Assembly: GCA_903913885.1 (NCBI GenBank)
Contig: CAIWMX010000061.1
Coordinates: forward strand, 11,891 to 75,890
Source: an uncultured Bacteroidales bacterium
Lineage (GTDB): Bacteria; Bacteroidota; Bacteroidia; Bacteroidales; FEN-979
Reading direction: 5' to 3'
Length of the DNA: 64,000 nt
The notes beneath the pieces were generated by a model. It was not told where the DNA came from and did no database searches. It worked only from the letters and a program-made list of their open reading frames with translations. The translations under genes and the position numbers were made by a program. Positions 29,501-42,789 of this stretch are shown here, in pieces. Within the stretch, counting starts at the first letter, position 1; every line of letters starts with the position of its first letter.

Positions 29501-31017
29501 CGGTGAGTGTGAGCTATGTCAACTCCTTTGGATGCGCTGCAGCTATGCCTACATCGCTGGCCGTATCCGTGACTACTGCGTCCAATCCCGTTATCAGCGG
29601 CTATTCATCCGTTTACGCGGGAACAGCAGGTGCGGTTTATTCTACCATTCCCGGCATGACAAGCTATTCCTGGGATGTTACAGGCGGGTCCATCACGGGC
29701 GGACAAAGCACCAACGCCATCACGGTGACCTGGGCAGCAACCCCGGGAAGCGGATCGGTAACCCTTACGGCCACAAACAATAGCTGTTCCGGCACCACCG
29801 TTTACCCGGTTACGATTCTGGCCACCACCAACGTAAAGATTTTTGGTTTTGTATCCTACAACAACAGCGCGGCAACCAGGATGAACGGGGTCGGGGTGAA
29901 GTTATACAATTCATCGAGCGTGATCGTGGGCGACACCGTCACGGCCAACAATCCCGACAATGGGCAGTCAGGCTACTACGCATTCAAAGATATCCCAAAT
30001 GACACCTATACCCTGCGCGGGAGTTACAACGGCACCTGGGGCGGCAACAACGCCACCGATGCCCTGATCGTGCAGTTGAACATTGTCGGATCGTACCCGC
30101 TGGCGGGCTTACGGGCCCTTGCGGCCGATGTGAACGGCAGCACCACCACTACTGCCCTGGATGCACTTTACATCAAATTGCGCACAGTGGGGTCCGTCAG
30201 TTCTTACCCGGCAGGCGATTGGAAGTTTACAGACACCACGGTGACCCTGACAGGTCCACCCCTGTCGGTCAACCTGCAGGCGCTGTGCACCGGCGATGTC
30301 AATAGTTCTTTTGTCCCAGTCGGGTTCAAAGAAACTACATTCCTGTCGGTTATTGAGGATGGCGCAATGACAGTCCCGGTTGGCGAACCCTTTATTTACA
30401 ATATCCACAGCAGCAGGGATGCCGATCTTGGAGCTATGACCCTCTTCCTGGGTTACGACAAAGACCGGTTTGAAGTGAGCGACGTAGCAGGAACCCTGGA
30501 TGGCATGAAGTATGTGATCGGCGATGGCCTGGTTGCCATTGCCTGGGCCGATACCAAACCCCTGAAGATGACCAGCGGCGACCTGGTATTGAGTCTCAAC
30601 ATGAAGCTGAAGGATAAGATCACTTTTCCCTCACGCGCGTTCGATATCCGGGCCGGGAGCGAATTTGCCGATATCCTGGCACGGCCGTATGAAAACTTCA
30701 ACCTGAAGATGGCGAACGTGGTAACGCCCGATGGCGCAAAGGATATCACACTTACGAATTACCCCAACCCGTTCAACAAAACCACCACCATCGTTTATGT
30801 GCTGCCTGAGGCAGGACACGCCGTGATTGAGTTGACCGATATCTATGGAAACGCCATCCGCACCCTGGCCGACTGCCAGGACAAGGCAGGATCTCATAGT
30901 ATAACGGTTGATCCGGCTGCGATGGGTTTGGCTTCGGGGGTGTACCTGTACAAGCTGGTATTTGAGAGTGCGGCGGATACCTATGTGAAGGTAAATAAGA
31001 TGGTGTTTACGAAATAA
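17548..31017 (+). CDS. Giant (4489 aa) modular T9SS-secreted cell-surface/adhesin protein
   Basis: A single uninterrupted ORF. The likely true start is M12 at 17581 (MKSIHWRNFILTTLILLLF..LAQ signal).
Modules in order:
- six 78-aa repeats;
- Fn3-like plus FISUMP-type (Fibrobacter succinogenes major paralogous, TIGR02145-like) units (DSRDGQ.YNTV.IG.QCWM.QNLNV..CP.GWH.PSD.EW);
- Cys-containing Ig-like repeats (YQW.VNG);
- DADGDGYG..DCNDND metal-binding-type motifs;
- CARDB-like modules;
- ten ~90-aa repeats;
- a dockerin-like then a cohesin-like segment;
- a T9SS CTD (NYPNPFNKTTTIVYVL..GVYLYKLVF..KVNKMVFTK). Confidence 0.93.
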   Translation: MLHTIKYCLTRMKSIHWRNFILTTLILLLFNRPTLAQNVTQVEYFTDTDPGYGLGINVPITPEPNFSDLVFPIDLTAISPGFHNLYVRSKDEYLKWSLTAVRPFYKESPNNLALPNIIQVEYFIDNDPGNGLATNAPIVPGTNLSNLVFPIDIGAIAPGFHNLYVRSKDAYLKWSLTAVRPFYKETAGMLSLPNISQVEYFIDNDPGNGLAKNVPIVPGTNLSNLIFPIDVGAVSPGFHNLYVRSKDAYQKWSLTAVKPFYTESPNNFVLPNITQVEYFIDNDPGNGLATNVSIVPGTNLSNLIFPIDVGAISPGFHNLFVRSKDAYQKWSLTAVRPLYKEIANITLPNVTKVEYFIDADPGHGLGTNVPVIPGYNLANVTFLADLTCVSHGKHHLYVRARDNNGKWSLTNDDTITSTGPFINASGSTNICPGQSVQLKAPTGPGRTYQWHKDNSPISNGTDSIFLATEIGSYYVQIVDAGVCTDTSNVLTVTLKSGSLTPTITGASPVCVGTQGIIYTTESGMTGYSWSVSSGGSIMSGSNTNNVTVNWNVAGAQTINVTYANSVGCTASPTIMNVTVNPLLPVSVTIAASINPSCSGTSVIFTATQTNGGNSPSYQWINGGINIPGATNSTYTYTPVIGDTISCQLTSSIQCPIGNPVVSTPIVMTVNASPNTPLSGANISSPIQIVWAWSSVVAATGYKWNTINNYATATDIGTATTKTETGLTCSTSYTRYVWAYNGCGNSIALILTQSTSPCFTTCGQTLTDSRDGQNYNTVQIGNQCWMAQNLNVGQQINSSGYQSNNGIIEKTCINNLESNCTIYGGMYQWDELMNYTSSSSTIPSGRQGICPIGWHLPSDAEWCQVTTYLDPTMNCSATGWLGSDAGAKMKETGILHWANPNIASNISGFTALPGGAYSRFGSTFYLFLNASYFWSATENGGNGWNYEMGNNISQIHRQGDATSMYLFSARCIMDCDMPVAPMFGIINTSPSQIIWNWNPVSGASGYKWNTTNDYASAQDLGTATTKTQTGLTCNTPYTCYVWAYNTCGHSTSLALNQSTSPCFTTCGQPLTDSRDGQSYNTVLIGSQCWMAQNLNVGAKINVPARQINNGLIEKFCFNNDEANCSIYGGLYQWDELLNYSSSGNSNPGNLRGICPFGWHVPTDFEWCQMEMFLDPTVNCSISGWSGTDIAGKLKETGTVHWQSPNTGATNSSGFTALPAGYGFGGYGFSFYDLNYTAYFWTSTVSPPVMDWSRILDYNNSQIQRHDPDWDNGFSARCIYDTCSSILYAPALGVNIPTNNQIIWNWSTVTGANGYKWNSTNDYTTAQDLGTNTSKTETGLLCNTTYNRYVWAYNLCGNSISTQLTQATSDCGIPCPGIPTLTYEGKTYHTVQIGEQCWMKENLNVGTKINGSQDQTNNNIIEKYCYNDIDSNCSIYGGLYQWDEMMNYTTSSSANPSDRQGICPTGWHIPSDVEWCQMETYLDLTVNCTYIGWNGTDIGGKLKETGTVHWLSPNIGASNSSGFTALPGGYRHYFGEFWSFAGAYLWSSTEISSTVSLNYHLSSPSTQILRDNNPKSDGFSIRCIKGCDNPETPNGGTNVPAPMQIIWNWLPVSGATGYRWSTTNDYSSSIDVGTATTKTQPGLSCNTAYTCYVWAYNGCGYSMALQMNQTTSMNPAVNVSISASGNPVCNGTTVTFTATSVSPGTSPVYQWQVNGSNEGINSSVYSYSPMNGDIVKCILTSNDPCVLVHSDTSNNITMTVNQVFPVSVSITSSANPVCSGSSATFTATPSNGGSNPAYQWKVNGSNAGSNNPSYSYIPVAGDQVSCVMTSNASCPSGNPATSNSITMALTSTTPVSVSITRSADNVCQGTAVSFTAAAVNPGTSPVYQWKVNGSGTGTNSPSFTYTPANNDVVTCSLYGDVTCPSPNPAISNSLTMSVVSAPAAPASGGNQASCSNALPGTLTAAAPSGSVVDWYTAPGGGTLLQSASNTFVTSTAGIYYAESRNTTTGCTSLARTAITLTINSAIQYFADADGDGYGNPLVSLMACSQPAGYVTNSTDCNDNDATVHALHLYYVDADGDGYGSTTTAMLCSNTAPPGYSSNNLDCNDNDPSINPGAQYFTPTGNPGFTGTIVSPLEGSSYTTFHFEADYHDLTNFLPPAGYPRLILDYEGDGNFAGPNDRTIVMTQSDPSDTTTNNGKRYFANVDGLLYGSSWQSRIIVSDGGNCTTTFGPFNAPDVLQAPNLVIFANDISFSNAHPDPSTAVMVYAAVHNESDFTAQNFVVHLVNQYDPTLVYPDVTVVSIAPHATTTVQWTITTPSIPAWCPMQVTVDYTNVIAEANELDNTAVRPFVCGNYQMPGGISCSGAVTPAVSYSSVNNTLQLSGNASYYGLAIPLPNPGVAGATVEFQITETTAIYSGYTDLNGNYTIYFPGPLPTGSYHIAGTITDYTFTGTFTAQFSIIPHTTLPNLVLQYCHSMSVQPQDPQYPGTGTLVAHVLNNGGTPAAGPIQVEFTYGTGAFFIGQSDATLGAGQSVDISVTKQLPPPATTTLTAYADPFDLVTESDESDNSATDNMCWDFQPVGFGYCGWNFWNTSYQVNQSATLSVGLNSYYLYDASQVKVKFEVSGPGITGTMNLGNGTVNNVTKNCYCPYAVVLPTQFTFSHTGTYTFTITADPDNEYVECNEANNVLVVTVYVYEPVVPNPQPNLTFYSCHPVEVQPVNPQYPGTASLVSHIINNGDAIAIGPIQVEFSYSTVGTFTGQYTGNLAPGQTVDITAIATLPPPATSLLTATIDPQHLVTESNESDNTTSDDMCWDFQPAPLCGPYGTNFWEHTYNINQSTYLSVGLSAYHLYKATPVKVRFEVSGPGITGTLYLGTALVNDVTKTCSCPYGASIPLPFTFFDPGTYTFTMTADPDHEYTECNESNNILVEQVAVVNPLPDMRILSQYLNPSLLNPSPNQAISFVVTYDNVGVTNVNDVMKMKVLIDTTLFATVYPLPGLASGDHNSVAIPGTWVSSLPGVHVIRGIIDADHVITELDETNNDATRSFIVGEAANLYFQAFAPSDSMPQLGDNILIHARIGNGGAQNCNSTLQVLYINDNADTVMIGQTPFSIQGRDSVSMILPWTVADNSTTLVGKIVNTIVMEFNYNDNLTTANLGGYQVTLTATPGCEGVTAGSLTAYASGGVTPYLYSWNNGYLGQTYSGAPGTYVVTVSDGNGQVRTATGTISVYPLPVPAISGPTSICGIPSSGNVYSTEAGMTNYSWTISPGGAITSGVGTNAITVTWSTTGARFVKVSYTDTHGCAAAASTVKNVTVYPLPIPALTGPVSACKGSTGHVYTTDSGMTGYTWYVSAGGTITAGGTSTDNTVTETWNTSGAQSVSVNYTNANGCTAASPANLPVSVKPLPIPTITGTTSVCTGSPGITYSTESSMTGYTWSVSPGGSVTAGGTSSSHTVTVIWNVPGPQTVGVNYTNGNGCTASSPTSYPVTVNSPPVPSITGPTTVCVNSTGNVYTTQTGMSSYTWTISTGGTITAGGTTSSNSVTVTWTSSGSKTVSVSCTNTNGCAAITPTTLGVTVNPAPLPTLSGPSSPMVNSTGNVYTTQGGMSAYTWTVSGGGSITSGGTSGSNSVTVTWITPGANTVSVNYSNSNGCSGATATSYPVTVIPLSAPVITGPSAACAGSTGNVYVTQTGMTAYTWSISSGGTITSGGSGTDHTVTVTWNNPGTQTVSVNYTDNYGYTPASPTSYPVTVNAMPSPTLAGPAVVCASSTGNVYTTQSGMSGYSWTVSAGGSITTGGTSASNNVTISWITAGLNSVSVNYTNGNGCTAVSAGSYAVTVNPQPIPVISGNSSVCINSTGNVYTTQPGMSAYTWTISSGGSITGGGSSSSSSATVTWNNAGQQTIGVNYTNGYGCSATSPGTRAVQVQAAPIPVITGPTSVCVGATGVVYTTEAGMIAYTWIVSSGGTITSGGSASSHSVTITWNTTGSQTVSVSYVNSFGCAAAMPTSLAVSVTTASNPVISGYSSVYAGTAGAVYSTIPGMTSYSWDVTGGSITGGQSTNAITVTWAATPGSGSVTLTATNNSCSGTTVYPVTILATTNVKIFGFVSYNNSAATRMNGVGVKLYNSSSVIVGDTVTANNPDNGQSGYYAFKDIPNDTYTLRGSYNGTWGGNNATDALIVQLNIVGSYPLAGLRALAADVNGSTTTTALDALYIKLRTVGSVSSYPAGDWKFTDTTVTLTGPPLSVNLQALCTGDVNSSFVPVGFKETTFLSVIEDGAMTVPVGEPFIYNIHSSRDADLGAMTLFLGYDKDRFEVSDVAGTLDGMKYVIGDGLVAIAWADTKPLKMTSGDLVLSLNMKLKDKITFPSRAFDIRAGSEFADILARPYENFNLKMANVVTPDGAKDITLTNYPNPFNKTTTIVYVLPEAGHAVIELTDIYGNAIRTLADCQDKAGSHSITVDPAAMGLASGVYLYKLVFESAADTYVKVNKMVFTK
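17662..18783 (+). repeat. Six tandem 78-aa (234-nt) intragenic repeats
   Basis: QVEYF(I/T)D.DPG.GL..N.PI.PG.NLSNL.FPID..A..PGFHNLYVRSKDAY.KWSLTAVRPFYKE recurs at residues 41, 119, 197, 275 and 353. Copies 2-5 are also near-identical at the DNA level. Confidence 0.9.
19555..22560 (+). repeat. Intragenic array of four Fn3-like modules, the first three each followed by a FISUMP-type domain
   Basis: The Fn3-like blocks (I.WNW..V.GA.GYKWN.TNDY..A.DLGT.T.KT.TGL.CNT.Y..YVWAYN.CG.S) are about 300 aa apart. The FISUMP blocks start near 19820, 20730 and 21660. Confidence 0.85.
27220..29820 (+). repeat. Ten tandem ~90-aa (~270-nt) intragenic repeats
   Basis: The unit is P.I(S/T)GP.SVC..STGNVYTT..GMS.YTWT(V/I)S.GG.IT.GGTS.SN.VTVTW...G..TVSVNYTN.NGC.A.SPTSYPVTVNP. 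One further isolated copy lies at about 19050-19290. Confidence 0.9.
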
Positions 31018-31085
31018 TATGTGGTGATTTCGGGAGCCTAAGTCACCGCGTGGGAGAATTGGCCTAAAATGACCACTACGAATCT

Positions 31086-31129
31086 ACTACCAGACTACTA
31101 CGAAACCACTACCAGACCACTACGAAACC
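31086..31129. repeat. Two tandem 22-bp units in the adhesin-hsdM intergenic region
   Basis: actaccagacYactacgaaacc occurs twice (31086-31107 and 31108-31129), preceded by a partial copy gaccactacgaatct (31071-31085). Confidence 0.8.
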
Positions 31130-31496
31130 ACGTAAAAGTGGATAGAATCTTCATATTTTTACATGTTTTCAGCAAGAAACCACATAATTCTGCATGAAAA
31201 CGTTGAAAATCCGTTTATACTCACCCCCGCAGCAGATTTCAGGCACGTCGAAACCTCCGGATGATCATCGAAAAAAGGACGAAATTGATGCTGCCCCGCT
31301 CAGAACCGATGGTGTTCTACCATGGATGAAAGCCAAGATGTAAAAGGGCTATCTCCTGCCAGGTAGTCTGGTTCTGTTTTAACCTCATATTGGAAGAATT
31401 GTCAGAAAAAATTTCCTTGTCTCATCACGCTTACCTAAATTTGACCTTATTTTAAAATAACATTGACCAACTGCCTCCCCAATCAATCCTCAACGA

Positions 31497-33077
31497 ATGG
31501 CCAAAGAACAAAAACCTGAAGCTGAAGAGCCCCTCGAAAAAAAACTATGGAAAACCGCTGACAAACTCCGTAAAAATATGGATGCGGCCGAATACAAGCA
31601 TGTGGTGATGGGCCTTATCTTCCTGAAATACATTTCCGATGCCTTTGAAGAGATGTTTCTGAAGCTAGTAGCTCAGAAAAGTGAAGGCGCCGACCCGGAA
31701 GATAAAAACGAATACACCGCTGAGAAGATATTTTATGTACCTCCCTCATCCCGGTGGAATTGGATCCAGGGCCGGGCGACCCTGCCTACCATCGGCAAGG
31801 ATGTGGACGATGCCATGGATGCCATTGAAAAAGACAATCCCTCCCTGCGCGGGGTGCTGCCGAAGGTCTTTGCCCAGGAAAAACTCGACAAGGCCAGCCT
31901 GGGTGGGCTCATCAACCTGGTAAGTTCAGCCGCCCTGGGCACAAAGGAGGCTCAAAGCAAGGATGTGCTGGGCCGGGTGTATGAATATTTCCTGGGCGAA
32001 TTCGCCATGGCCGAAGGGAAAAAGGGCGGGCAATTCTACACCCCCTCCTGCGTGGTAAAACTCCTTGTCGAAATGCTCGAACCCTACGAAGGCCGGGTAT
32101 TCGACCCCTGCTGCGGCAGCGGCGGCATGTTCGTGCAAAGCGAAAAATTCATCCTTCACCACCAGGACCATTACCGCGCCCGGGGTGGATCCCGGTCTGC
32201 AAATACCATGAACCCTACTGACTTCATCTCCATCTACGGCCAGGAGAGCAACCAGACCACCTGGCGGCTCGCCAAGATGAACCTCGCTATCCGCGGCATC
32301 GACAGCAGCAACGTGAAGTGGAACAACGAAGGCAGTTTTCTCAACGATGCCCACAAGGACCTGAAGGCCGACTATGTGATTGCCAATCCCCCGTTCAACG
32401 ACAGCGACTGGAGCGGCGACCTGCTCCGCGACGATGCCCGGTGGAGCATCCTGGGGAAAAAGTTGCCCCCTCCCCCCGGCAATGCAAATTATGCCTGGAT
32501 CCAGCACTTCCTATACCACCTGGCTCCCACCGGGATGGCTGGGTTCGTATTAAGTAAAGGTTCGCTCACCACCAACACCACCGGCGAAGGCGATATCCGC
32601 AGGGCCCTGGTCGAAAACGACCTGGTCGACTGCATCGTGAACCTCCCCACCAAGCTTTTTCTCAATACCCAGATCCCGGCCTGCCTCTGGTTCCTGCGCC
32701 GGAACAAAACCCTGCGCAAAGGAGAAATCCTCTTTATCGACGCCCGGAACCACGGTTACCTGATCAACCGCAAGAACCGAAGCCTTTCTGATGATGACAT
32801 TTCCATGATCGCAGGCGTTTATCATGCGTGGCGCACTGGTGAGGCTGAATACAACGATGTGGCCGGGTTCAGCAAGAGTGCTTCTCTTGACGAGGTAACT
32901 GCCTTGAATTTTGCATTGACCCCGGGCAGGTATATCGGGTTGGCTGATGATGAGGATGATTTTAATTTCCCGGAACGGTTTGCGGCATTGAAGGCTGAAC
33001 TGGAGAAACAGATAGCCGAAGAAGATGCATTGAACCGGCGCATTGCGGAAAACCTGTCAAAAATAAACCTCAGTTGA
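31497..33077 (+). CDS. hsdM: Type I restriction-modification system, N6-adenine DNA methyltransferase subunit M
   Basis: 526 aa with an HsdM_N-type N-terminus ([32 protein letters not shown]), SAM motif [11 protein letters not shown] and catalytic motif IANPPFN. Confidence 0.95.
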
Positions 33078-33198
33078 CATGTTCCAATTCTGCACCGAAG
33101 AAAGGATTTTTAAGATCACAGATTGTGACCATAAACCAGGACCAAAACAGAATGGACTCGGAAACAGTTAAATTATTGAATCAAATAAAGGTGAAAGA

Positions 33199-34335
33199 AT
33201 GAGGGAGTGGAAAGAAGTTAAGTGGGGTGAAATTGCTGTCCTTGAATACGGCAAAGCCTTAAAAGACTATCAGAATAAAAATGGGAAGTACCCTGTTTTC
33301 GGGACAAACGGACAAATTGGGACAACAGATTCTTTTTTATGTTCTTCTTCTGGAATAATTATTGGAAGAAAAGGAGCGTACAGGGGCGTACATTATTCTG
33401 ATATGCCTTTTTTTGTGATTGATACAGCATTTTATTTAAACCCTGCAATTAATGAGTTAAACATCAAGTTTGCATACTATCACCTGCTAAATGTCGATAT
33501 TAATGCGATGGATAGTGGCTCTGCAATACCTTCGACAAGCCGGGAAGAGTTTTATGACTTAAATATTTTGCTTCCGGAACTTGACGAACAAATTGCCATA
33601 TCTGAAGTTCTAAGCAGTTTAGATGACAAAATCGACCTCCTCCACCGCCAAAATAAAACTTTAGAGCAATTGGCCGGAACGCTTTTCAGGCAGTGGTTTG
33701 AGGATGAGGCACAAATAGATTGGAAAGAAATGAAGTTAAGTGATTTCATTTCCGTGAAACATGGCTATGCATTTAAAGGTGCTCACATCTCAAATGAGCC
33801 TACCAATCTTATCTTAGTAACCCCAGGGAATTTTAAAATTGGTGGTGGATTCAAGTTTGAGAAATTCAAATATTATACGGATAATAAATTTCCACAAGAT
33901 TATATCTTTAGAACTGGCGATTTAATCGTAACAATGACGGATTTAAGCGGGGATGGAGACACCCTTGGTTATCCAGCATTAATTCCTGAAAATTGTTTGA
34001 ATGAAAACTATTTACATAATCAACGTGTTGGAAAAGTTGAGTTTAACAAAGATCTTGGAAAGTTTTTTATTTATTATTTAATGAAAACAAAGAATTATCA
34101 ATGGTTTATCCTTGGAGGTGCATCGGGTACTTCAATAAGACATACTTCACCAACAACAATCTGCTCATACTCTTTTTTTATGCCACCTAAGCAAAAACTA
34201 ATTGAGTTTGAATTTTTTGCTACAGAATTAGAGAAAAAAAGGACAAAGAACCATACTCAAATTCGCACCCTAACCAAACTCCGGGATACCTTATTGCCAA
34301 AATTGATGAGTGGAGAGGTTAGAATTCAATGTTAA
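33199..34335 (+). CDS. hsdS: Type I restriction-modification system, specificity subunit S
   Basis: 378 aa with two variable target-recognition halves. They are separated by the conserved helix LPELDEQIAISEVLSSLDDKIDLLHRQNKTLEQLAGTLFRQWF and closed by a second one, IRTLTKLRDTLLPKLMSGEVRI. Confidence 0.92.
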   Translation: MREWKEVKWGEIAVLEYGKALKDYQNKNGKYPVFGTNGQIGTTDSFLCSSSGIIIGRKGAYRGVHYSDMPFFVIDTAFYLNPAINELNIKFAYYHLLNVDINAMDSGSAIPSTSREEFYDLNILLPELDEQIAISEVLSSLDDKIDLLHRQNKTLEQLAGTLFRQWFEDEAQIDWKEMKLSDFISVKHGYAFKGAHISNEPTNLILVTPGNFKIGGGFKFEKFKYYTDNKFPQDYIFRTGDLIVTMTDLSGDGDTLGYPALIPENCLNENYLHNQRVGKVEFNKDLGKFFIYYLMKTKNYQWFILGGASGTSIRHTSPTTICSYSFFMPPKQKLIEFEFFATELEKKRTKNHTQIRTLTKLRDTLLPKLMSGEVRIQC

Positions 34336-34339
34336 TAAA

Positions 34340-35944
34340 ATGGAAGAGACTGATTCATTAATGCTCGATACCTGGATCATCCGGGAATACAAATCAAAGC
34401 AAAGAAGTTGGTATCCAGTTGTTACTGATTCCGAACTTATTTTTAACTGGGAGGAGTTTCCGGCATTTAACAACTCAACCTTTGAAGAAATCTATTTTAT
34501 TACCAAAAAAAACAATTCTTATAGAAGATCTGATTGGATACATTATATTTCAAGTGCAATCTATAACAGTTATAAAATTAGGAAGAACCATATTGTTATT
34601 ATAGCCAACTTCAGCAATCGAATAACAAAAATAGGCGTAGTCGTTGCTAAGACTATAACGAATGACCATGATCGTTGCATCCGGTTTTCAGTCGAATGGA
34701 AAAAATTTCAACATGAAATGATTGTTGAAAACCGCGAGTTCCCAAAATGGCACCTGGTAAAATCCCTTGAACAGAATCGATCATATTCTTTATTATCCGG
34801 CGCTGAATTTGTTAAAAGCCCAGGGGATTCGAGGACACCCTGGTTTGATCTTATGTTTTTTCCGGAAGATCAAAAAGTTATTGTTTCGCGTAAAGCGATT
34901 AAACATAAGTTCCTTGAAGATCCTCTCTTTTTTCATACAATAAAAGATGATACCGGTGGCACTGTAAAGTTGTTTTTCGGCACAAACAGGAATAGAACGG
35001 GTTCGGAGAATCCAAATGATTATTTTGGAAATAAACCTGATGGATTGTCATTTGGGACTTGTATGGTAAACATTCCAAAAGGTCATATGCAAGGAGAGGT
35101 AGAACGTCCCTTCAGTTTCTGGGTTTTTAAATTGCATGAAAATGAAGAAGACCACGTTGTTCTAAAAAGTATCACCGAGGTTGAATCAAAGTCCTTTTTT
35201 GATGAACTGAACGAAGAGATTGCTTTGAAGTCTGAAAAAGCAGCCTTAATATTTCTTCATGGATACAACACGAGCTTTGCTGAAGCATCACGAAGGGCTG
35301 CACAAATAACATGGGATGTTCCATTTAATGGAATATCAGGATTTTATAGCTGGCCATCCCAGGGAAACCCACTGTTATACCGAAAAGATATAAAGCTTGC
35401 CAATGCCTCAGTGCCATGTTTTGAAGAATTTATTACGAGGATGATGGATAAATCAAATGTTGAGAAACTGCATATAATTGCTCATAGTATGGGCAGCCGT
35501 TTGCTTTTGTTTACAATAAAAAATATATTCCGGAAAACGCCGATCTTCAGCAAACTTTCAACTATTAATCAACTTGTTTTAGCCGCACCGGATTTTGATC
35601 AGATTGATTTTCAAAACAATATCCTGCCCTATTTTAGCAGGCTAGGGTCTCGAAGAACTTTATATGCATCAGACAAAGATTTAGCACTAAAGGTATCCGA
35701 ATATCTAAGAGGTGGACTTCCACGACTTGGAGAGGCCGGAGATTCGATATTTGTGGCTGAAGGCCTCGATACCATTGATGCATCTAATGTAGAATCAAAC
35801 TGGAAAAATCACAGCTATATTTTTGATGAGAAAGAGTTGCTTACCGACCTTTTTCTTCTTTTGAAAAACGGGGATGGGCCTTTGGATCGAAGATTAAGGC
35901 CTCGAAAAAAATTTGATTTACCGTACTGGTTATTTCCAGCATGA
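34340..35944 (+). CDS. DUF900-like alpha/beta-hydrolase with an unassigned ~210-aa N-terminal domain, embedded in the type I R-M operon
   Basis: The ORF is open from 34310, but the ATG at 34340 lies 4 nt after the hsdS stop, so it is the likely start. The C-terminal half has the DUF900-type entry motif KLFFGTNRNR..FGTCMVNIPKGH. It also has the nucleophile elbow IIAHSMGS (Ser codon 35486-35488), acid motif LAAPDFD and a late His (KNHSYIF). Confidence 0.85.
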   Translation: MEETDSLMLDTWIIREYKSKQRSWYPVVTDSELIFNWEEFPAFNNSTFEEIYFITKKNNSYRRSDWIHYISSAIYNSYKIRKNHIVIIANFSNRITKIGVVVAKTITNDHDRCIRFSVEWKKFQHEMIVENREFPKWHLVKSLEQNRSYSLLSGAEFVKSPGDSRTPWFDLMFFPEDQKVIVSRKAIKHKFLEDPLFFHTIKDDTGGTVKLFFGTNRNRTGSENPNDYFGNKPDGLSFGTCMVNIPKGHMQGEVERPFSFWVFKLHENEEDHVVLKSITEVESKSFFDELNEEIALKSEKAALIFLHGYNTSFAEASRRAAQITWDVPFNGISGFYSWPSQGNPLLYRKDIKLANASVPCFEEFITRMMDKSNVEKLHIIAHSMGSRLLLFTIKNIFRKTPIFSKLSTINQLVLAAPDFDQIDFQNNILPYFSRLGSRRTLYASDKDLALKVSEYLRGGLPRLGEAGDSIFVAEGLDTIDASNVESNWKNHSYIFDEKELLTDLFLLLKNGDGPLDRRLRPRKKFDLPYWLFPA

Positions 35945-36104
35945 AACTCGTCATTTTTGATAAAATGGAATCCTTCGCCGATGAGCAACCTAAATATTTA
36001 TGTATGGTTTTGTTCATCCTCGCAAATTTTTACTTAATCCGGAAAAGGAAAGTCAATACATGTTATTAATAATCTGTAACTTGCTGCTTAATTAACAAAG
36101 GAAC

Positions 36105-37568
36105 ATGATTAAAAACTGGATACACCGGGCTTTTGAACTCTTAACCCACAGCTTGGAGCCGGTACCACAGGAGATCAATGAGCTTGATTGGAAAGAGAGT
36201 CTTTCACCTGATAATGCGAAACTGACCCGCCATCTTTCAGCATTTGCTAATCAGCCTGGTGGTGGCTTTATGGTATTTGGCATCGAAAATAAAACTGCAA
36301 AACTTATTGGGATTTCACATAAAGATACAGATCTTATTGTTCAGAAGCTAAGCAGTCTATGCCGGGATGCTCTCAATCCGGTTATTGTATTGGACCATGC
36401 TGTTGAATATTATCAGGATGTTCCACTGCTTTTTATTTATATAAAAGAAAGTTCTGTAAAACCAGTACACTTAACATCGGAGTCAATTGAAGTTGCTTAT
36501 ATCCGCAGCGGGGGAACAACCCGTCTGGCCTCCAGGCATGAAGTGGGGGCCCTGATGCTGAACAGTAAAACACCTCAATTCGAGGAACTGCATGCTTCCA
36601 AACTCAAACAATTTCCTGAAATAATGGATTTGCTTGATTTCAGAAGTATATTCAGGTTGCTTGATAAGCCGGTACCACAGACAAATTCAGAGATTCTCCG
36701 GTGGCTGACAGATGAAAAAATGATTGTTGCCATAGATGGCGCGGGGTTTTACATAACCAATTTTGGCGCTTTATCATGTGCATACAATTTGAAGGAATTT
36801 GATGGTCTTGCAAGGAAGAGCATCCGTTTGATAAAATATAAAGGCATTACCAAAATTGAGACCGAGAAAGAATACCCGGGTTCCAGGGGGTATGCAATCG
36901 GATTTGATGGTTTAATCACCTTTATCAAAGCATTGCTTCCTGGAAGTGAGATCGTGAAAAATGCCTTAAGGGCAGAGACAACAATATACCCCGAAATTGC
37001 ACTACGGGAGTTGATCGCAAATGCTCTTATCCACCAGGACTTCTCCATTCGTGGTTCCGGACCTATGATTGAAATTTTTGACAATAGAATTGTTATTTCA
37101 AATCCGGGTAAACTTTTACCATCAAAAAAAATAGACCGGCTGATAAGAACAACTCCTGAATCAAGAAATGAAGTTTTAGCGGCAGCTTTCAGAAGGTATA
37201 ATATCTGTGAGGAAAGAGGTTCAGGCCTTGAGAAGGCCGTTGCTGCTATTGAATTCTACGGATTACCCCCATTGAAATTTGAAGAGCTGGAAAATTCATT
37301 CAGAGTCACCATGTTTAGCCCGAAAACATTTGCAAACTTAACCCCGGCAGAGCGTGTAGAAGCATGTTATCAGCATTCAATAATCAAATATTATTCAACC
37401 GGAGGGATGTCCAATGCCAGTTTAAGGGAAAGATTTAAGATGCACGAAAAGCAAAGACCTCAGGTTTCCCTGGTAATCAAAGAAGCTTTGTCGCTTGGGA
37501 AGATTAAACCCAGAGACCCAAATAATGTATCAACAAAATTTGCTGAATACATCCCGTTTTGGGGTTAG
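36105..37568 (+). CDS. Schlafen/AlbA_2-domain plus HATPase_c_4-like protein with C-terminal wHTH-like tail, embedded in the type I R-M operon
   Basis: 487 aa. The N-terminus ELDWKESL..LTRHLSAFANQPGGGFMVFGIE is the AlbA_2 (divergent AAA / Schlafen-like) signature. The centre RELIANALIHQDF..GPMIEIFDNRIVISNPG is the HATPase_c_4 signature. Confidence 0.8.
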   Translation: MIKNWIHRAFELLTHSLEPVPQEINELDWKESLSPDNAKLTRHLSAFANQPGGGFMVFGIENKTAKLIGISHKDTDLIVQKLSSLCRDALNPVIVLDHAVEYYQDVPLLFIYIKESSVKPVHLTSESIEVAYIRSGGTTRLASRHEVGALMLNSKTPQFEELHASKLKQFPEIMDLLDFRSIFRLLDKPVPQTNSEILRWLTDEKMIVAIDGAGFYITNFGALSCAYNLKEFDGLARKSIRLIKYKGITKIETEKEYPGSRGYAIGFDGLITFIKALLPGSEIVKNALRAETTIYPEIALRELIANALIHQDFSIRGSGPMIEIFDNRIVISNPGKLLPSKKIDRLIRTTPESRNEVLAAAFRRYNICEERGSGLEKAVAAIEFYGLPPLKFEELENSFRVTMFSPKTFANLTPAERVEACYQHSIIKYYSTGGMSNASLRERFKMHEKQRPQVSLVIKEALSLGKIKPRDPNNVSTKFAEYIPFWG

Positions 37569-37675
37569 TCTTTGCTTAACTTAAAATGCTAACTATGATT
37601 TATGTTGCTGATATCCAATCGTTTTTTGCTTAATTCAAAACTGGAAAGTTATATAAACCTTGTTTTTTTTTTTTA

Positions 37676-40600
37676 ATGAAACCCATCACCGAGGATAAAA
37701 TAGAATCCTTCACCATCGAACAACTTCAGCAATCGGGTTGGGAGTATGTTCATGGTGTTTCAATTGCCCCAGGTGGTGAAAATCAGGAACGTGAAACCTA
37801 CGAACAAGTTATTCTTGTTGGCCGCCTGAAAGCTGCCATTACCCGTTTGAACCCTAATATACCGGAAAACTACAGGGAACAGGCCGTACAAAAGGTGTTG
37901 CGTATTTGGTCACCCGACCTTCTGCACAACAACGAAACATTTCATCAACTCCTGGTGGAAAAAGTACGCATCCCATACCAGCAGGATGGCTATGAACGCA
38001 GCCATGAAGTGGCGCTGGTTGATTTCGGCAATATCGGGAACAACCAGTTTTTGGCGGTCAACCAGTACACCATCGTTGAAAACAACCAGAACAAACGGCC
38101 GGATGTGCTGCTGTTCGTGAATGGCATCCCCCTGGTGGTGATCGAACTCAAGAATGCGGCCGACGAACAGGCTACCCTGCGCAAGGCCTTCGACCAGGTG
38201 CAAACCTATAAGGCCACCATTCCAGGGTTGTTCACCTTCAATTCCATTTGCGTGATTTCCGACGGGATGGAATGCAAGGCCGGAAGCGTTACCGCCGGGT
38301 TCAGCCGCTATATGGCATGGAAAACCGCCGATGGCCGGAAGGAGGCTTCCAGGTTCAAGCCACAGTTGGAAACCCTGCTCACCGGGATGCTGAACCCCGC
38401 CACCCTGCTCGACCTGGTGCGCAATTTCATTGTCTTCGAGAAAACGAAAAAAGAGGAACCGAAAACCGGCATCACCCAGGTTGTAACAGAAAAGAAGCTG
38501 GCGGCCTACCACCAGTATTATGCCGTGAACAAGGCGGTGCAGTCAGCCTTCCAGGCCTCAGGCATCCATGGCGACAAGCGGGGCGGTGTGGTGTGGCATA
38601 CGCAGGGATCGGGAAAAAGCCTGAGCATGGTCTTCTTTGCCGGCAAACTGATCGTTTCGCCCGAGATGCAAAATCCCACCATCGTGGTGCTCACCGACCG
38701 CAACGACCTCGACGACCAGTTGTTCGGCACCTTCGCCGCCGCCAGACAATTGCTGCGGCAGGAACCCATGCAAGCCGAAAGCCGGGATCAGCTGAAAGAG
38801 CTGCTGAAGGTGGCCAGTGGCGGCATCGTCTTCACCACCATCCAGAAATTCCTTCCCCAGGATGGAGCAACAACCTACGACACCCTCTCCGAACGGAGGA
38901 ACATCGTGGTGATTGCCGACGAGGCACACCGCACCCAATATGGATTTGAAGCAAAGTTGCTGGATGAAAAGGATGCCGTTACCAAGGAGGTGATCGGCAA
39001 GCGCATCGCCTACGGTTTTGCCAAGTACATGCGCGATGCCCTGCCCAATGCCACTTATATAGGCTTCACCGGCACCCCCATCGAGGGAACCGACGTGAAT
39101 ACCCCGGCCGTGTTCGGACAATACGTGGATGTGTATGACATCGCCCAGGCCGTGGCCGACGGTGCCACCGTTCGCATCTATTACGAGAGTCGGCTGGCAA
39201 AGGTAAACCTCGATGAAGAGGGCAAACGGCTGATCCGGGAGTTTGACGACGAGCTCGAACAGGATGAAGAGGTAACTGAAAAACAAAAGGCCAAGGTCAA
39301 ATGGACCAAACTGGAGGCCATTGTCGGCAATACCGACCGGGTGAAGAACCTGGCCAGGGATATTGTCACCCATTTTGAAGTACGGCAGTCCGTTTTTGAC
39401 GGCAAGGCCCTGGTGGTGGCCATGAGCCGCAGGATTGCCGTTGACCTGTACAATGAGATCATCAGAATCAGGCCGGGCTGGCATGATGACGATCCATCGA
39501 AAGGCATCATCAAGGTGGTGATGACCTCCAGCAGCGCCGACGGCCCCGTGATCTCGAAACATCACACCACGAAACAGCAGCGGAAGAATTTGTCGGACCG
39601 GATGAAAGACCCAGCGGATCCGTTGAAGATCGTGATCGTGCGCGACATGTGGCTCACCGGCTTTGACGTTCCCTGCCTGCATACCATGTACATTGACAAG
39701 CCCATGCGCGGCCACACGCTGATGCAGGCCATCGCCCGTGTGAACCGCGTGTTCAGGGACAAACCGGGCGGGTTGGTGGTCGATTACCTGGGCATTGCTT
39801 CCGACCTGAAGAAGGCCCTGTCGTTCTATTCCGATTCCGGCGGAAAGGGCGATCCCGCCTTAAGCCAGGAGCAGGCCGTTGCCGCCATGGTTGAAAAGAT
39901 GGAGGTGCTGCAGCAGATGTTTGCCGAAGACAGCTCCACCCGGAAAGATATCCTGGTTGAAGAACCGGAGGCCTATTACAAAAATAGTTTGAAATTCAAT
40001 TATCGTCGTTTCTTTAGTGTCGACGCCAGGGAGAAGCTCTCCATCATCCTGCAGGCTGAAGAGCATATCCTCGGGCTGAATGAAGGAAAAGAACGGTTTA
40101 CGCGCGAAGTCTCCCTGCTGAGCCAGGCCTTTGCCCTTTCCGTCCCGCAGGAAAAAGCCATGGAGATCAAAGACGAGGTAGCCTTTTTCCAGGCTGTAAG
40201 ATCGCGGCTGGTGAAATTTGAAGGCACCGGCAATGGCAAATCAGATATTGAAATTGAAACCGCCATCAAGCAGATCGTAGATGAAGCCCTGAGCTCCGAC
40301 ACCGTCATCGACATCTTTGATGCAGCAGGAATCAAAAAGCCCGATATCTCCATCCTTTCCGACGAGTTCCTGCTCGATGTGAAGGGGATGAAACACCAGA
40401 ACCTGGCACTTGAACTGCTGAAGAAGATCCTGAACGACGAAATCAAAACCAGGGCCAAAACCAACCTGGTTAAAAGCAGGGCCCTGTTGGAGATGCTGGA
40501 ATCCTCCATCAAACGGTACCAGAACAACCTCTTGTCAACCGCCGAGATCATCCAGGAGCTGATCAACATTGCAAAGGAGATCAAAGCAGCCGACGCCGAG

Positions 40601-40903
40601 GGCGAACGGCTGGGTTTAACCACCGATGAAGTGGCTTTTTACAATGCCCTTGAAACCAATGATAGCGCGGTGGCTGTTTTGGGAGACATTACACTACGGG
40701 AGATTGCAAGGGAGATTGCAGAGAAAGTGCAGGCGAATGCTACTATTGACTGGACAATCCGGGAAAGTGCCCGGGCGAGGTTGATGGTGATTGTGAAGCG
40801 GACGTTGACGAAATACGGGTATCCTCCGGATAAGCAGCAGAAAGCAATTGATACCGTGTTGAAGCAGGCGGAGTTGATGGCGGAATATTATATAACCGTT
40901 TAA
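37676..40903 (+). CDS. hsdR: Type I restriction-modification system, endonuclease/helicase subunit R
   Basis: 1075 aa with Walker A HTQGSGKS, DEAH box VIADEAHRTQ, helicase C motifs (MWLTGFDVP, QAIARVNR) and an N-terminal nuclease-type region (PDVLLFVNGIPLVVIELK). Confidence 0.95.
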   Translation: MKPITEDKIESFTIEQLQQSGWEYVHGVSIAPGGENQERETYEQVILVGRLKAAITRLNPNIPENYREQAVQKVLRIWSPDLLHNNETFHQLLVEKVRIPYQQDGYERSHEVALVDFGNIGNNQFLAVNQYTIVENNQNKRPDVLLFVNGIPLVVIELKNAADEQATLRKAFDQVQTYKATIPGLFTFNSICVISDGMECKAGSVTAGFSRYMAWKTADGRKEASRFKPQLETLLTGMLNPATLLDLVRNFIVFEKTKKEEPKTGITQVVTEKKLAAYHQYYAVNKAVQSAFQASGIHGDKRGGVVWHTQGSGKSLSMVFFAGKLIVSPEMQNPTIVVLTDRNDLDDQLFGTFAAARQLLRQEPMQAESRDQLKELLKVASGGIVFTTIQKFLPQDGATTYDTLSERRNIVVIADEAHRTQYGFEAKLLDEKDAVTKEVIGKRIAYGFAKYMRDALPNATYIGFTGTPIEGTDVNTPAVFGQYVDVYDIAQAVADGATVRIYYESRLAKVNLDEEGKRLIREFDDELEQDEEVTEKQKAKVKWTKLEAIVGNTDRVKNLARDIVTHFEVRQSVFDGKALVVAMSRRIAVDLYNEIIRIRPGWHDDDPSKGIIKVVMTSSSADGPVISKHHTTKQQRKNLSDRMKDPADPLKIVIVRDMWLTGFDVPCLHTMYIDKPMRGHTLMQAIARVNRVFRDKPGGLVVDYLGIASDLKKALSFYSDSGGKGDPALSQEQAVAAMVEKMEVLQQMFAEDSSTRKDILVEEPEAYYKNSLKFNYRRFFSVDAREKLSIILQAEEHILGLNEGKERFTREVSLLSQAFALSVPQEKAMEIKDEVAFFQAVRSRLVKFEGTGNGKSDIEIETAIKQIVDEALSSDTVIDIFDAAGIKKPDISILSDEFLLDVKGMKHQNLALELLKKILNDEIKTRAKTNLVKSRALLEMLESSIKRYQNNLLSTAEIIQELINIAKEIKAADAEGERLGLTTDEVAFYNALETNDSAVAVLGDITLREIAREIAEKVQANATIDWTIRESARARLMVIVKRTLTKYGYPPDKQQKAIDTVLKQAELMAEYYITV

Positions 40904-41037: not shown

Positions 41038-41373
41038 ATGGAAATTAAATACAAGACAAGTAAATTAGCAAAAAGTGTCGAATCACCGCGAGATATCCAA
41101 AAAAACTACGGGACTCGCGCCAAATTGGTAAATCAACGAAAAAGTGAATTAGAAGCGGCAGAAACATTAGATACAATGCGATTTATCCCTGCCGCTAATT
41201 GTCATGAATTGTCAGGTAATCATACTGGTGAACTTGCAGTTGATATTTCACAAAATCACAGAATAATTTTTGAACCAAATCACAATCCTATTCCGATAAA
41301 ACCAGATAGTGGACTTGATTGGACCCGGGTAACTAAAATTATTATCAATGCCATAGGTGTCGACTACCATTAG
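41038..41373 (+). CDS. higB: HigB-like (RelE/ParE superfamily, 'killer protein') toxin
   Basis: 111 aa. NCHELSGNHTGELAVDISQNHRIIFEP and the C-terminal GVDYH match the HigB-like toxin family pattern (..L.G.r.G..si.i...wRi.F....dYH). Confidence 0.8.
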   Translation: MEIKYKTSKLAKSVESPRDIQKNYGTRAKLVNQRKSELEAAETLDTMRFIPAANCHELSGNHTGELAVDISQNHRIIFEPNHNPIPIKPDSGLDWTRVTKIIINAIGVDYH

Positions 41374-41386
41374 ATAACACCAAGCC

Positions 41387-42493
41387 ATGAAGTATAAAAG
41401 CGTGAAAGATATTAGTGCCGCAAAAGATCTTATTTCCCCTCCGGGCGATACACTTTTGGAAACCATCGGGCATAAAGGTATTTCCCAAACTGAGTTAGCT
41501 CAACGAATGGGAAGGCCGCTGAAAACCATTAATGAAATTATAATGGGTAAAACTGCCATTATGCCGGAAACGGCATTACAACTGGAAAGAGTTATTGGCA
41601 TTCCTGCAAGTTTTTGGCTTGAACGCGAGCGTTTATATAGACTTGAATTAGCGGAAATTAAAGACGCTGAATCATTTCTTGCCTCTAAAGATTGGGTCAA
41701 TCAATTTCCTGTTACAGAAATGTTAAAATTGTCCTGGATTGAATGTAACAGGGATACTATTTCACTCACAAATGCCTTACTTCGGTTCTTTTCTGTTGCT
41801 GATCAATCCTCATACGATAATTACTACCAGGGGAACCTCTATTCTTCAGCTTTTCGCATTTCGGAAAGAGAATCAAAGAATTCTCATGCTATTGTTGCCT
41901 GGTTGCGTAGAGGGGATATACAGGCAGAATCCATTGATGTTCCGGTATTTGATGCCAGGAAATTCAAAGCTGCCTTACCCCAATTCAAAGAGCTAATGGC
42001 TGAGAACCCATCTGATTTTTTCCTCAAATTACAAACTATTAGTGCCCGCTGTGGCGTAAAAGTTCTTTTCACCCCATGTTTACCTAAGGCCCCAATCAGC
42101 GGAGCGACACGTTGGCAAAATGACACGCCCCTTATTCAGCTGACAGGACGATATAATCGAAATGATATATTCTGGTTTACCTTTTTTCACGAAGCAGGTC
42201 ACATTATTCTACATGGTAAAAAAGATGTTTTCCTTGAAGGTATAGGCCACTCTGTTGAGAAAGAAATAAAAGAGAAGGAGGCTGATGATTTTGCGATAGA
42301 ATGGACTTTAACGGGCAAAGAGGAACGGGAAATTTCTCAATCCATGCCATTAACGGCACAAGCAGTGTCAGGATATGCCAAAAAGTATGGAACGCACGAA
42401 GCACTAATTATTGGACGCATGGCAAAACTCAATTATATTCATGATAGTATTGGGTGGACTCATGGTTTTTTTCAAAAAGTCGAATTAAAATGA
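41387..42493 (+). CDS. HigA-type XRE HTH antitoxin fused to an ImmA/IrrE-family (DUF955) metallopeptidase domain
   Basis: 368 aa. The N-terminal HTH is GISQTELAQRMGRPLKTINEIIMGKTAIMPETALQLERVIGIPASFWL. The C-terminal Zn-peptidase motif is FTFFHEAGHIILH (HExxH). Confidence 0.85.
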   Translation: MKYKSVKDISAAKDLISPPGDTLLETIGHKGISQTELAQRMGRPLKTINEIIMGKTAIMPETALQLERVIGIPASFWLERERLYRLELAEIKDAESFLASKDWVNQFPVTEMLKLSWIECNRDTISLTNALLRFFSVADQSSYDNYYQGNLYSSAFRISERESKNSHAIVAWLRRGDIQAESIDVPVFDARKFKAALPQFKELMAENPSDFFLKLQTISARCGVKVLFTPCLPKAPISGATRWQNDTPLIQLTGRYNRNDIFWFTFFHEAGHIILHGKKDVFLEGIGHSVEKEIKEKEADDFAIEWTLTGKEEREISQSMPLTAQAVSGYAKKYGTHEALIIGRMAKLNYIHDSIGWTHGFFQKVELK

Positions 42494-42514
42494 ATGTATT
42501 AGTTCACGGCTATG

Positions 42515-42536
42515 GGTGGCAAATCCGGTGGCAAAT
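42515..42536 (+). promoter_or_regulatory. Candidate integrase arm-type binding site (doublet GGTGGCAAAT), right end of the island
   Basis: ggtggcaaatccggtggcaaat lies 32 bp from the right att repeat and is 21/22 identical to 13568-13589. Confidence 0.5.
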
Positions 42537-42568
42537 AAAAAAGGGCCCGAAAGTTAACCTTCCAAAAC

Positions 42569-42628
42569 CCTTGATTTCACTGGTGGGACGTGAGGGATTC
42601 GAACCCACGACCTCATGCGTGTGAAGCA
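42569..42628. repeat. Right copy of the 60-bp perfect direct repeat (att site)
   Basis: Identical to 13405-13464. It covers 12 nt downstream of the tRNA plus the tRNA 3' 48 nt. Confidence 0.95.
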
Positions 42629-42658
42629 TGCGCTCTGAACCGACTGAGCTAACGTCCC
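42581..42658 (-). tRNA. tRNA-Val (anticodon CAC), CCA encoded
   Basis: I folded this 78-nt cloverleaf by hand: acceptor GGGACGT/ACGTCCC, D-arm GCTC..GAGC, anticodon stem CATGC/GCATG with loop TTCACAC, and T-arm GTGGG-TTCGAAT-CCCTC (one U-U mismatch). The discriminator is A, followed by CCA. Confidence 0.9.
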
Positions 42659-42762
42659 CTGTGACAGATGGCAAAGATAGCAAATAAATTTACGATTTTG
42701 AATTTTAGATTCAGGAGCCCCTTTTTAAATTGATTACGGGTTTGTAATCGCAATAAAAACGT

Positions 42763-42770: not shown

Positions 42771-42789
42771 CGATTAAAATCGCAATATC

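Follow-up and report, generated by a model that had tools for sequence, protein, structure and literature searches.

Do two genes that interrupt a type I restriction-modification (R-M) operon constitute one defense system, or are they separate passengers that occupy the same site? This question is raised by a locus in a 64,000-nucleotide (nt) stretch of DNA from an uncultured Bacteroidales bacterium (hereafter the window), wherein a gene for a DUF900-family α/β-hydrolase and a gene for a Schlafen-GHKL ATPase-helix-turn-helix (HTH) protein (hereafter SLFN) lie between hsdS and hsdR. An initial annotation, made from the sequence alone, proposed that the two genes form an undescribed back-up abortive-infection (Abi) module that monitors the R-M complex, with SLFN as the sensor and the hydrolase as the effector. 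The idea of embedded cargo is reasonable for each gene separately, whereas a two-gene module coupled to R-M is not supported. The locus is probably an ordinary, apparently functional type I operon whose hsdS-hsdR interval, a known hotspot for cargo, holds two unrelated single-gene modules that act independently. Type I operons with embedded passengers were already known, as were this class of Schlafen proteins and its link to R-M; the new element is a conserved repeat module that flanks the Schlafen gene.

Operon organization and co-occurrence of the cargo genes

All five genes of the operon lie on the plus strand, in the order hsdM (31497-33077; 526 amino acids, aa), hsdS (33199-34335; 378 aa), the hydrolase gene (34340-35944; 534 aa), the SLFN gene (36105-37568; 487 aa) and hsdR (37676-40903; 1075 aa). 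The hydrolase start codon follows the hsdS stop codon by 4 nt, and the gaps on either side of the SLFN gene measure 160 nt (from the hydrolase gene) and 107 nt (to hsdR). Gene order, gap lengths and the placement of the cargo between hsdS and hsdR agree with the initial annotation, and the three Hsd subunits that it described as intact carry all of the motifs and domains that it named. Specifically, the methyltransferase subunit HsdM contains the NPPF motif and an N6-adenine methyltransferase domain (Pfam N6_Mtase, E 6e-104; HsdM_N, E 4e-27; PADLOC MTase_I, E 1e-182). The specificity subunit HsdS has two target-recognition domains (TRDs), evident as two stretches that match Pfam Methylase_S, and the PADLOC Specificity_I match (E 5e-78) spans its full length. 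In the restriction and translocase subunit HsdR, the translation includes a Walker A motif (GSGKS) and DEAH, and the N-terminal nuclease, the SF2 motor and the C-terminal domain are all matched (Pfam HSDR_N, SWI2_SNF2, ResIII, T1R_D3-like and T1RH-like_C; TIGR00348, E 2e-186, 621 bits against a cut-off of 285). The five open reading frames (ORFs) are not chance features, because they are long and match families far beyond curated cut-offs. The analysis confirms that the type I R-M operon is complete and that it has cargo between hsdS and hsdR.

The same five-gene arrangement is found on several metagenome contigs. Eight contigs encode the exact SLFN protein, and all of these that reach upstream have the gene order of the window, so that they presumably derive from one lineage. 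A scan for promoters and terminators found no convincing terminator in the three intergenic gaps; it used a σ70-type consensus, and its promoter matches are uninterpretable for a probable Bacteroidota host.

The evidence on whether the cargo genes belong together comes from two sets of loci, each comprising the best 80 of its search. One set was gathered by scanning one genome per species with an alignment of the full-length hydrolase (80 DUF900 loci), and the other by scanning metagenomes with the SLFN protein (the source contig and 79 others, with 51-86% identity). By tblastn, an AlbA_2/HATPase_c_4 homologue is present in none of the 80 DUF900 loci, and a DUF900 gene in none of the 79 non-self SLFN loci. 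The reading of the two genes as one system fails because they never co-occur outside the source lineage, and the two-gene system was rejected on this basis. Homologues of either gene do recur in type I operons elsewhere, each on its own.

Conservation of the two proteins is also very unequal. SLFN has very many homologues of the same length at 70-86% identity, whereas the best non-self match of the hydrolase is 46% identical and most of its matches cover only the hydrolase core, behind differing N-termini. The nearest relatives of the SLFN-hsdR segment (loci L084 and L085) align with the window as one colinear block of 77-78% nucleotide identity that starts at 36017, about 70 nt past the hydrolase stop codon, and the hydrolase gene is thus outside the block. 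Other genes are found upstream of SLFN in its relatives, including a 565-aa ORF without assignment (L082) and hsdS itself (L094). A further ORF of ~135 aa, by eye DUF413/MaoP-like (…LEKYGHWFWALTSGVLEP…), precedes SLFN in L084 (64-471) and L085 (2-385); it is an unusual R-M neighbor.

A varied content of the hsdS-hsdR interval is well documented. A survey of 'guilt-by-embedding' counted 17,432 genes inside type I R-M systems (bioRxiv 10.1101/2024.01.29.577857), and among our loci the slot also holds GmrSD, RhuM, an AAA_15/21 and DUF3696 protein with a GmrSD_N protein, a UDG-like gene, Abi_C and SIR2_2. PrrC, TgvAB (PMC11411939) and DarTG2 (PMC12255303) are established precedents for embedding in type I R-M systems. 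Like the two genes studied here, TgvAB, DarTG2 with RptR, the Campylobacter jejuni Rlo genes and PADLOC PDC families are co-oriented cargo between hsd genes; TgvAB and DarTG, however, are true obligate pairs, and the two cargo genes in the window are not. The slot gathers unrelated cargo of defense type, of which this locus is a clear example, and therefore adjacency within it is weak evidence of partnership. To keep the two-gene reading would place a non-existent 'system' into defense catalogues, a system that comparative genomics splits.

The Schlafen gene and its flanking repeats

SLFN matches the Pfam domains SLFN_AlbA_2 (PF04326; E 1e-15, 58.6 bits against a cut-off of 25.3) and HATPase_c_4 (PF13749; E 4e-25, 87.9 bits against a cut-off of 26). 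When 30 homologues are aligned, the nuclease motif E23-x4-D28-x-K30, which fits the published definition E(x)4(D/E)xK (bioRxiv 10.64898/2026.05.29.728809), is invariant, as are the GHKL boxes E302/N306, N333-P-G335 and G372-S-G374. Two residues of the SAFAN box (S45AFAN49), A46 and N49, are likewise invariant, with conservation of at least 90% at S45, F47 and A48. The AlbA_2 domain therefore retains the Schlafen nuclease motifs, and the claimed relation of this protein to Schlafens stands. Its nearest solved structure by sequence is the uncharacterised protein DIP2311 (3LMM; E 5e-10). The same structure heads the fold matches of an AlphaFold2 (AF2) model (mean predicted local distance difference test score, pLDDT, 74.9; E 5e-19, aligned over the full length), followed by mammalian SLFN14, SLFN11, SLFN5, SLFN13 and SLFN12, the SAMD9 tRNase domain and PDK-type GHKL kinases. 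The C-terminus of the model comprises helices at residues 414-463 and then short β-strands; this region has no Pfam HTH match and appears from the predicted fold to resemble a winged helix.

The protein belongs to the commonest prokaryotic Schlafen class, termed Schlatpase or pSlfn-HisKinase-HTH, on which three reports bear (PMC13056530; PMC13462974; bioRxiv 10.64898/2026.05.29.728809). The Schlatpase supradomain is reported for ~60,000 prokaryotic proteins, >90% of which have a C-terminal HTH (bioRxiv 10.64898/2026.05.29.728809). Taboada et al. give pSlfn-HisKinase (34%) and pSlfn-HisKinase-HTH (19.2%) as the commonest architectures (PMC13056530), and a 2026 Nature Communications paper describes Schlafen-ATPase-DNA-binding proteins (Cluster 7) as tightly associated with R-M (PMC13462974). 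Class members share with SLFN the combination of PF04326 and PF13749, the E(x)4(D/E)xK motif, the SAFAN box and the occurrence as a stand-alone gene beside type I R-M genes, and their HTH-like tail may have a counterpart in its predicted winged-helix-like C-terminus. They also share the GHKL glutamate that is required for the ATPase of RzAgo, a protein in which ATP-driven tetramerization leads to tRNA cleavage and whose D32A and E314A mutants lose defense (bioRxiv 10.64898/2026.05.29.728809); the equivalent residues here are D28 and E302. Unlike relatives of this group, SLFN lacks a pAgo, Ig-like, DUF262 or Csx15 sensor domain. No stand-alone member of the class is known to have shown a phage phenotype or to respond to a defined trigger. 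For SLFN, PADLOC (v2.0.0) returns PDC-S50 at E 0.006 and otherwise only partial matches to pAgo and Aga models that contain SLFN. The word 'undescribed' in the initial annotation is only partly correct, since the class of SLFN and its R-M link are published.

The same AlbA_2 and HATPase_c_4 architecture occurs in TrlG of Photorhabdus laumondii, which we liken to SLFN on this ground. Mutations in TrlG relieve a temperature-induced growth arrest (PMC7554251), which is genetic evidence that this protein arrests the growth of its own cell. TrlG differs in being encoded by a three-gene operon (trlRFG), in being triggered by a temperature up-shift and in having no R-M context in Photorhabdus.

At least 31 of the 79 loci have type I genes no more than four ORFs away from the SLFN gene. 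Where at least two ORFs are present on each side the proportion is 16 of 36 loci, and with at least one ORF it is 26 of 56; two more loci have genes for EcoEI-type HsdR among the unclassified neighbors of SLFN. ORF clustering over all loci gives hsdM-hsdS-SLFN-hsdR as the usual order, and SLFN is directly 5′ of hsdR in at least 16 loci. The partner HsdR proteins are 24-90% identical to that of the window overall, and SLFN stays 63-86% identical even where the adjoining HsdR is only 24-33% identical. For this reason, a PrrC-like dependence on one R-M complex appears unlikely. The SLFN gene hops between type I families and non-R-M sites as a self-contained unit with its flanking modules. At two loci, a second SLFN-type ORF (…MKNWI…ELDWKE…) stands right after the first as a tandem duplicate (L120, from 4653 onward; L134, from 11461 onward).

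The E. coli prr locus resembles the locus studied here in that PrrC, like SLFN, couples an NTPase domain to a nuclease that putatively targets tRNA and is encoded between hsd genes. The folds, however, are unrelated: PrrC and RloC combine an ABC-type ATPase with a PrrC nuclease, whereas the protein in the window combines SLFN and GHKL domains, and no match to the ABC-ATPase and PrrC nuclease domains was found in either inserted protein with Pfam, NCBIfam or PADLOC. Moreover, PrrC is almost exclusively embedded in R-M systems (bioRxiv 10.1101/2024.01.29.577857), whereas the SLFN clade is so in ~40-45% of loci and with several HsdR families.

An alignment of 18 regions upstream of SLFN genes revealed a module of ~80 nt that consists of two 24-nt direct repeats (TTTTGCTTAAYTnGAAAAcGGAAA) spaced 54 nt apart. 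The window contains this module on both sides of the SLFN gene, each time on the plus strand. In the upstream module (36027-36105), motif copies start at 36030 and 36084, and the second ends at the SLFN start codon. The downstream module (37570-37648), with copies starting at 37572 and 37626, begins 1 nt past the SLFN stop codon (37566-37568), which puts its first motif copy 4 nt past the stop; the module ends 27 nt ahead of the hsdR start codon, and its second copy is placed 29 nt ahead of that codon. Both are matched by R1, a sequence-only model of the 84-nt module used with a cut-off of E ≤0.01 (50.0 bits and E 3e-13 upstream; 53.5 bits and E 3e-14 downstream).

The association of the module with SLFN genes is specific. 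A pattern search for the motif gave three matches in the window versus 0.12 expected, and with up to three mismatches allowed it gave 112 matches in 858 kb of SLFN loci versus 5 in 1.3 Mb of DUF900 loci. R1 found 117 matches in the loci, each of which abuts SLFN and has the strand of the gene; only the two named above are within the window. It found none in the 1.3 Mb of controls, among them type I operons with an HsdR that shares 63-78% identity with that of the window. The offsets of the motif from the SLFN start and stop codons are fixed across loci: by nhmmer, the module lies 0-8 nt after the stop codon in 52 of 72 loci, often in tandem, and at -76 to -79 from the start codon in 30 of 73. 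In two loci (L095 and L099), the second motif copy of the module directly abuts the hsdR start codon. The module is a new feature that travels with the SLFN gene; keyword searches in passages of the three reports cited above returned no mention of it.

Several candidate explanations for the module were rejected. As a structured RNA it yielded no base pairs with RNAalifold, no consensus structure and no Rfam match, and a TTGA-N3-TCAA mini-palindrome or mini-hairpin within it fared no better than shuffled sequences and showed no covariation. A role as an intrinsic hsdR promoter element was discarded as well, since the module is missing from type I operons without SLFN. It is not simply the promoter of the next gene, because a convergent neighbor, or no gene start at all, often comes after it. 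A ToxIN-like type III toxin-antitoxin system is a further possible reading of the direct repeats that flank SLFN on the coding strand; the RNAalifold, covariation and Rfam analyses gave no RNA structure for them. No exact match to the motif was found in viral contigs, where both cargo proteins are rare (9 and 3 loci). The most economical explanation, and most likely the correct one, is that the flanking repeats are a binding site for the predicted C-terminal winged helix of SLFN itself. A precedent for repeat binding beside R-M genes is RptR, a repressor that is genetically tied to a type I R-M system and binds direct repeats (PMC12255303).

The DUF900 hydrolase

The other cargo protein matches Pfam DUF900 (PF05990) with E 1e-36 and 126.7 bits against a cut-off of 20.5, and the match covers only its C-terminal ~60% (residues ~295-510 in the numbering of a 544-aa ORF that starts at GTG 34310). 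Read from the ATG at 34340 the protein has 534 aa, not the 535 first annotated; besides the GTG at 34310, an alternative start is the ATG at 34361 (527 aa), which is called in one source contig. The nucleophile that had been named S393 bears this number only in the 544-aa form and is S383 (codon 35486-35488) in the 534-aa protein. It is part of the element H382-S383-x-G385, which is invariant along with D447 and H491 among 30 homologues. An AF2 model (pLDDT 83.5) divides the protein into an N-terminal α/β domain (residues ~8-153), a disordered linker (154-201) and the hydrolase core (202-534). Matches by fold and by profile are lipases, cutinases and PET hydrolases (PETases), with a common AHSMG nucleophile elbow. 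The protein has no signal peptide, matches no family in PADLOC v2.0.0 and has no informative match in NCBIfam. It is a cytoplasmic α/β-hydrolase of the Ser-Asp-His type whose nucleophile elbow is lipase-like and whose N-domain is lineage-specific, and its gene abuts hsdS translationally. The most economical reading is that it would act as a stand-alone effector of the esterase or (phospho)lipase type, in which the N-domain may have a regulatory or sensing role.

The N-domain (~150 aa) matches no Pfam family, and a scan of ten such N-domains at E ≤10 gave nothing consistent. Residues 1-155, searched against a library of 1.84 billion representative sequences, returned only the protein itself and one marginal match. 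The N-domain of the window is 14-22% identical to those of the rest of its family, and a profile search with their alignment gave no match at E ≤0.001 and missed its own input proteins, which makes it uninformative. The possibility that the N-domain is an HsdS-like TRD was dismissed on an hhalign probability of 1.7%.

The hydrolase clade nearest to the window comprises 19 loci from Bacteroidota and Ignavibacteriota. Seven of these are in or beside type I operons (L001, L004, L005, L009, L012, L015 and L016), and in L004, L009 and L016 the gene is between hsdS and hsdR. Among the 61 more distant DUF900 loci, none has type I genes. Furthermore, remnants of the HsdS C-terminal tail (…LRDTLLPKLMSGE…) directly follow a hydrolase stop codon at L001:1861-1938, L001:299-361 (minus strand) and L002:11446-11535, and no intact type I system is near the last of these. 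Because such hsdS-tail fragments follow the DUF900 stop in L001 and L002, the arrangement suggests hsdS 3′-end junctions as the route by which the hydrolase gene spreads or the site from which it decays.

The DUF900 family is functionally undefined (PMC11878206), and our literature search for DUF900 proteins or α/β-hydrolases in phage defense returned nothing specific. The one characterized enzyme related to it is cinquedea, a secreted archaeal bactericidal phospholipase whose homologues mostly have a DUF900 domain (bioRxiv 10.64898/2026.06.10.730825). The hydrolase of the window shares with cinquedea the family, the Ser-Asp-His core and the lipase-like elbow, but differs from it in having no signal peptide, in its ~150-aa N-domain without a family and in its location in a type I operon. 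The DUF900 clade of Bacteroidota and Ignavibacteriota, none of which is in PADLOC v2.0.0, merits listing as a candidate embedded effector.

Two smaller features adjoin the hydrolase gene. A 20-nt direct repeat, identical at 17 of 20 positions (TCAATGTTAATAAAATGGAA / TCATTTTTGATAAAATGGAA), is present at the start of the gene (34326-34345) and past its stop codon (35951-35970), at a distance of 1625 nt; an insertion may have left it as a scar, or two A-rich start contexts may match by chance. The second feature is an ORF of 42 aa whose core is hydrophobic (MKLVIFDKMESFADEQPKYLCMVLFILANFYLIRKRKVNTCY; 35941-36069, plus strand); it overlaps the hydrolase stop codon (ATGA) and is called on two source contigs. 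Its status as a gene is doubtful, and it was rejected as a conserved partner of the hydrolase after it was not found behind DUF900 genes in other loci.

Competing explanations and genomic setting

If SLFN and the hydrolase are independent modules of an ordinary type I operon, as we consider probable, then the behavior of relatives suggests how each might work. ATP binding by SLFN would lead to its oligomerization and thereby to an active RNase that cuts tRNA, as RzAgo, RorSlfn5, Cash and TrlG lead one to expect, and such cleavage could bring about growth arrest or Abi upon a trigger. The predicted winged helix would bind the flanking repeats, which could provide autoregulation or tethering and possibly control of the adjacent hsdR. 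The DUF900 protein would be a separate effector of the lipase type, with its N-domain as regulator or sensor. Cassette exchange driven by recombination would have produced the current low-GC middle of the operon.

Several observations weigh against parts of this explanation. With the 4-nt spacing between hsdS and the hydrolase gene and the common strand, all five genes could be co-transcribed, and functional cross-talk of the cargo genes in this particular strain is possible. The two sets of loci hold only the best 80 per search, and many of their contigs are short. HisKinase-type pSlfn constructs alone gave no phage defense in E. coli (PMC13056530), so that an Abi role of this class is unproven. 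Beyond the loci with type I genes, SLFN has no dominant partner: more than half of its loci are without a nearby R-M gene, and more than half of its orthologues are among mostly housekeeping-looking neighbors. The remaining 12 of the 19 loci in the hydrolase clade similarly have mostly metabolic, redox or regulatory neighbors and few defense genes, with a SIR2-HerA system near the hydrolase gene in one or two of them. Neither cargo gene is therefore strictly a defense-island gene. Finally, the flanking repeats could act at the RNA level, as a linear element in the 5′ and 3′ untranslated regions of the gene, rather than as a binding site on DNA.

The proposal that the hydrolase and SLFN are one Abi system guarding the R-M complex, with SLFN as sensor and hydrolase as effector, draws on the adjacency of the genes on one strand of one operon with short gaps, on the defense-island setting and on the embedded precedents PrrC, TgvAB (PMC11411939) and DarTG2 (PMC12255303). 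We nevertheless regard it as very improbable. As a conserved system it is refuted, and it would be tenable only as an interaction specific to this strain: co-occurrence outside the lineage is zero, the homology of L084 and L085 starts only past the hydrolase gene, the two proteins are conserved to very unequal degrees, and SLFN pairs with several unrelated HsdR families. The assignment of roles fares no better, since the SLFN domain is the effector in every characterized bacterial Schlafen (PMC13056530; PMC13462974; bioRxiv 10.64898/2026.05.29.728809). Somewhat less remote, and still quite unlikely in our judgment, is that one or both cargo genes are passengers without a part in defense, such as an esterase with a housekeeping or niche function, in a recombination-prone slot. 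The redox, metabolic and regulatory neighbors in 12 of 19 clade loci with few defense matches, the lack of a PADLOC model that fits the hydrolase and the undefined function of the DUF900 family (PMC11878206) would all agree with this. Against it are the concentration of the clade at type I operons (7 of 19 loci versus 0 of 61 distant DUF900 loci), the hsdS-tail remnants in two loci, the lack of a signal peptide, the lethality of the only characterized DUF900-family enzyme, a phospholipase (bioRxiv 10.64898/2026.06.10.730825), and the defense roles demonstrated for SLFN-related architectures.

Another explanation, which we hold to be unlikely, is that the main role of the SLFN-GHKL-HTH protein would be to regulate its own gene and hsdR in a sequence-specific manner, as a controller acting through the 24-nt repeats rather than as an Abi nuclease. 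Fixed module offsets on both sides of the gene, a module placed ahead of the hsdR start codon here and abutting it in L095 and L099, the predicted winged-helix-like C-terminus and the position of SLFN immediately before hsdR in at least 16 loci are all features that such a controller might have. RptR offers a precedent (PMC12255303), and the lack of defense by HisKinase-type pSlfns alone (PMC13056530) also fits. However, the nuclease triad, the SAFAN box and the ATPase boxes are invariant among 30 homologues and therefore argue for retained catalysis. In addition, many loci have a convergent gene, or no gene start at all, after the downstream module, R-M genes are absent near SLFN in more than half of the loci, and the related TrlG arrests growth (PMC7554251).

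A combination of these functions is conceivable, although we rate its chances as rather low. Stand-alone SLFN-GHKL-HTH proteins might bind their own flanking 24-nt repeats, as DNA or mRNA, with the nuclease wired to the expression or activity of the restriction subunit; SLFN could, for example, serve as a controller or tether until restriction fails or is inhibited, and then be released and become a tRNase. Such wiring would explain why defense is absent when these proteins are cloned away from their context. As a secondary reading, the DUF900 hydrolase with its orphan N-domain may represent a new single-gene defense effector that targets lipids and spreads via hsdS 3′-end junctions. The most interesting lead is the conserved cis module, which provides a handle on how the commonest bacterial Schlafen class is regulated and on whether its nucleases communicate with restriction enzymes, and makes that regulation directly testable.

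The base composition of the operon is uneven. G+C content is 0.52-0.58 in hsdM, falls to 0.31-0.43 in a block that begins with hsdS (0.32-0.38) and extends through both cargo genes and the first ~220 nt of hsdR (window positions ~33100-37900), and rises to 0.50-0.60 in hsdR from about 37900. Because this low-GC block lies between a high-GC hsdM and the high-GC rest of hsdR, it suggests that the present arrangement was built by cassette exchange through recombination, in which the variable middle of the operon was replaced.

Downstream of hsdR on the plus strand are a small HigB-like ORF (41038-41373; Pfam HigB-like, E 4e-4, below the cut-off), a gene with HTH_3 and Peptidase_M78 domains (41387-42493; PADLOC PD-Lambda-2_B, E 2e-29, and a HigA family match) and a gene for an AAA_14/DUF4143 ATPase that corresponds to the PADLOC candidate PDC-S01 (42790-43923; PADLOC E 7e-160; Pfam AAA_14 and DUF4143). 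On account of these HigB-like, PD-Lambda-2_B-like and PDC-S01 genes, the operon sits in a defense island; the genes from 41038 to 43923 are context and not members of the operon.

The defense island is flanked by two giant, repeat-rich ORFs that resemble surface adhesins, at 17548-31017 (4489 aa) and 45654-56705 (3683 aa); the upstream one contains PKD, Ig_7 and CARDB domains in the source contig. Between this ORF and hsdM is a gap of 480 nt, in which a short array of tandem repeats with a period of 11 nt (GACCACTACGA…) occupies 31071-31136. A second array, at 43914-44025, repeats an 8-nt unit (CCATTTTA and variants) ~14 times in tandem and lies between the PDC-S01 gene and a convergent gene for an AraC-type regulator (44056-45336, minus strand).

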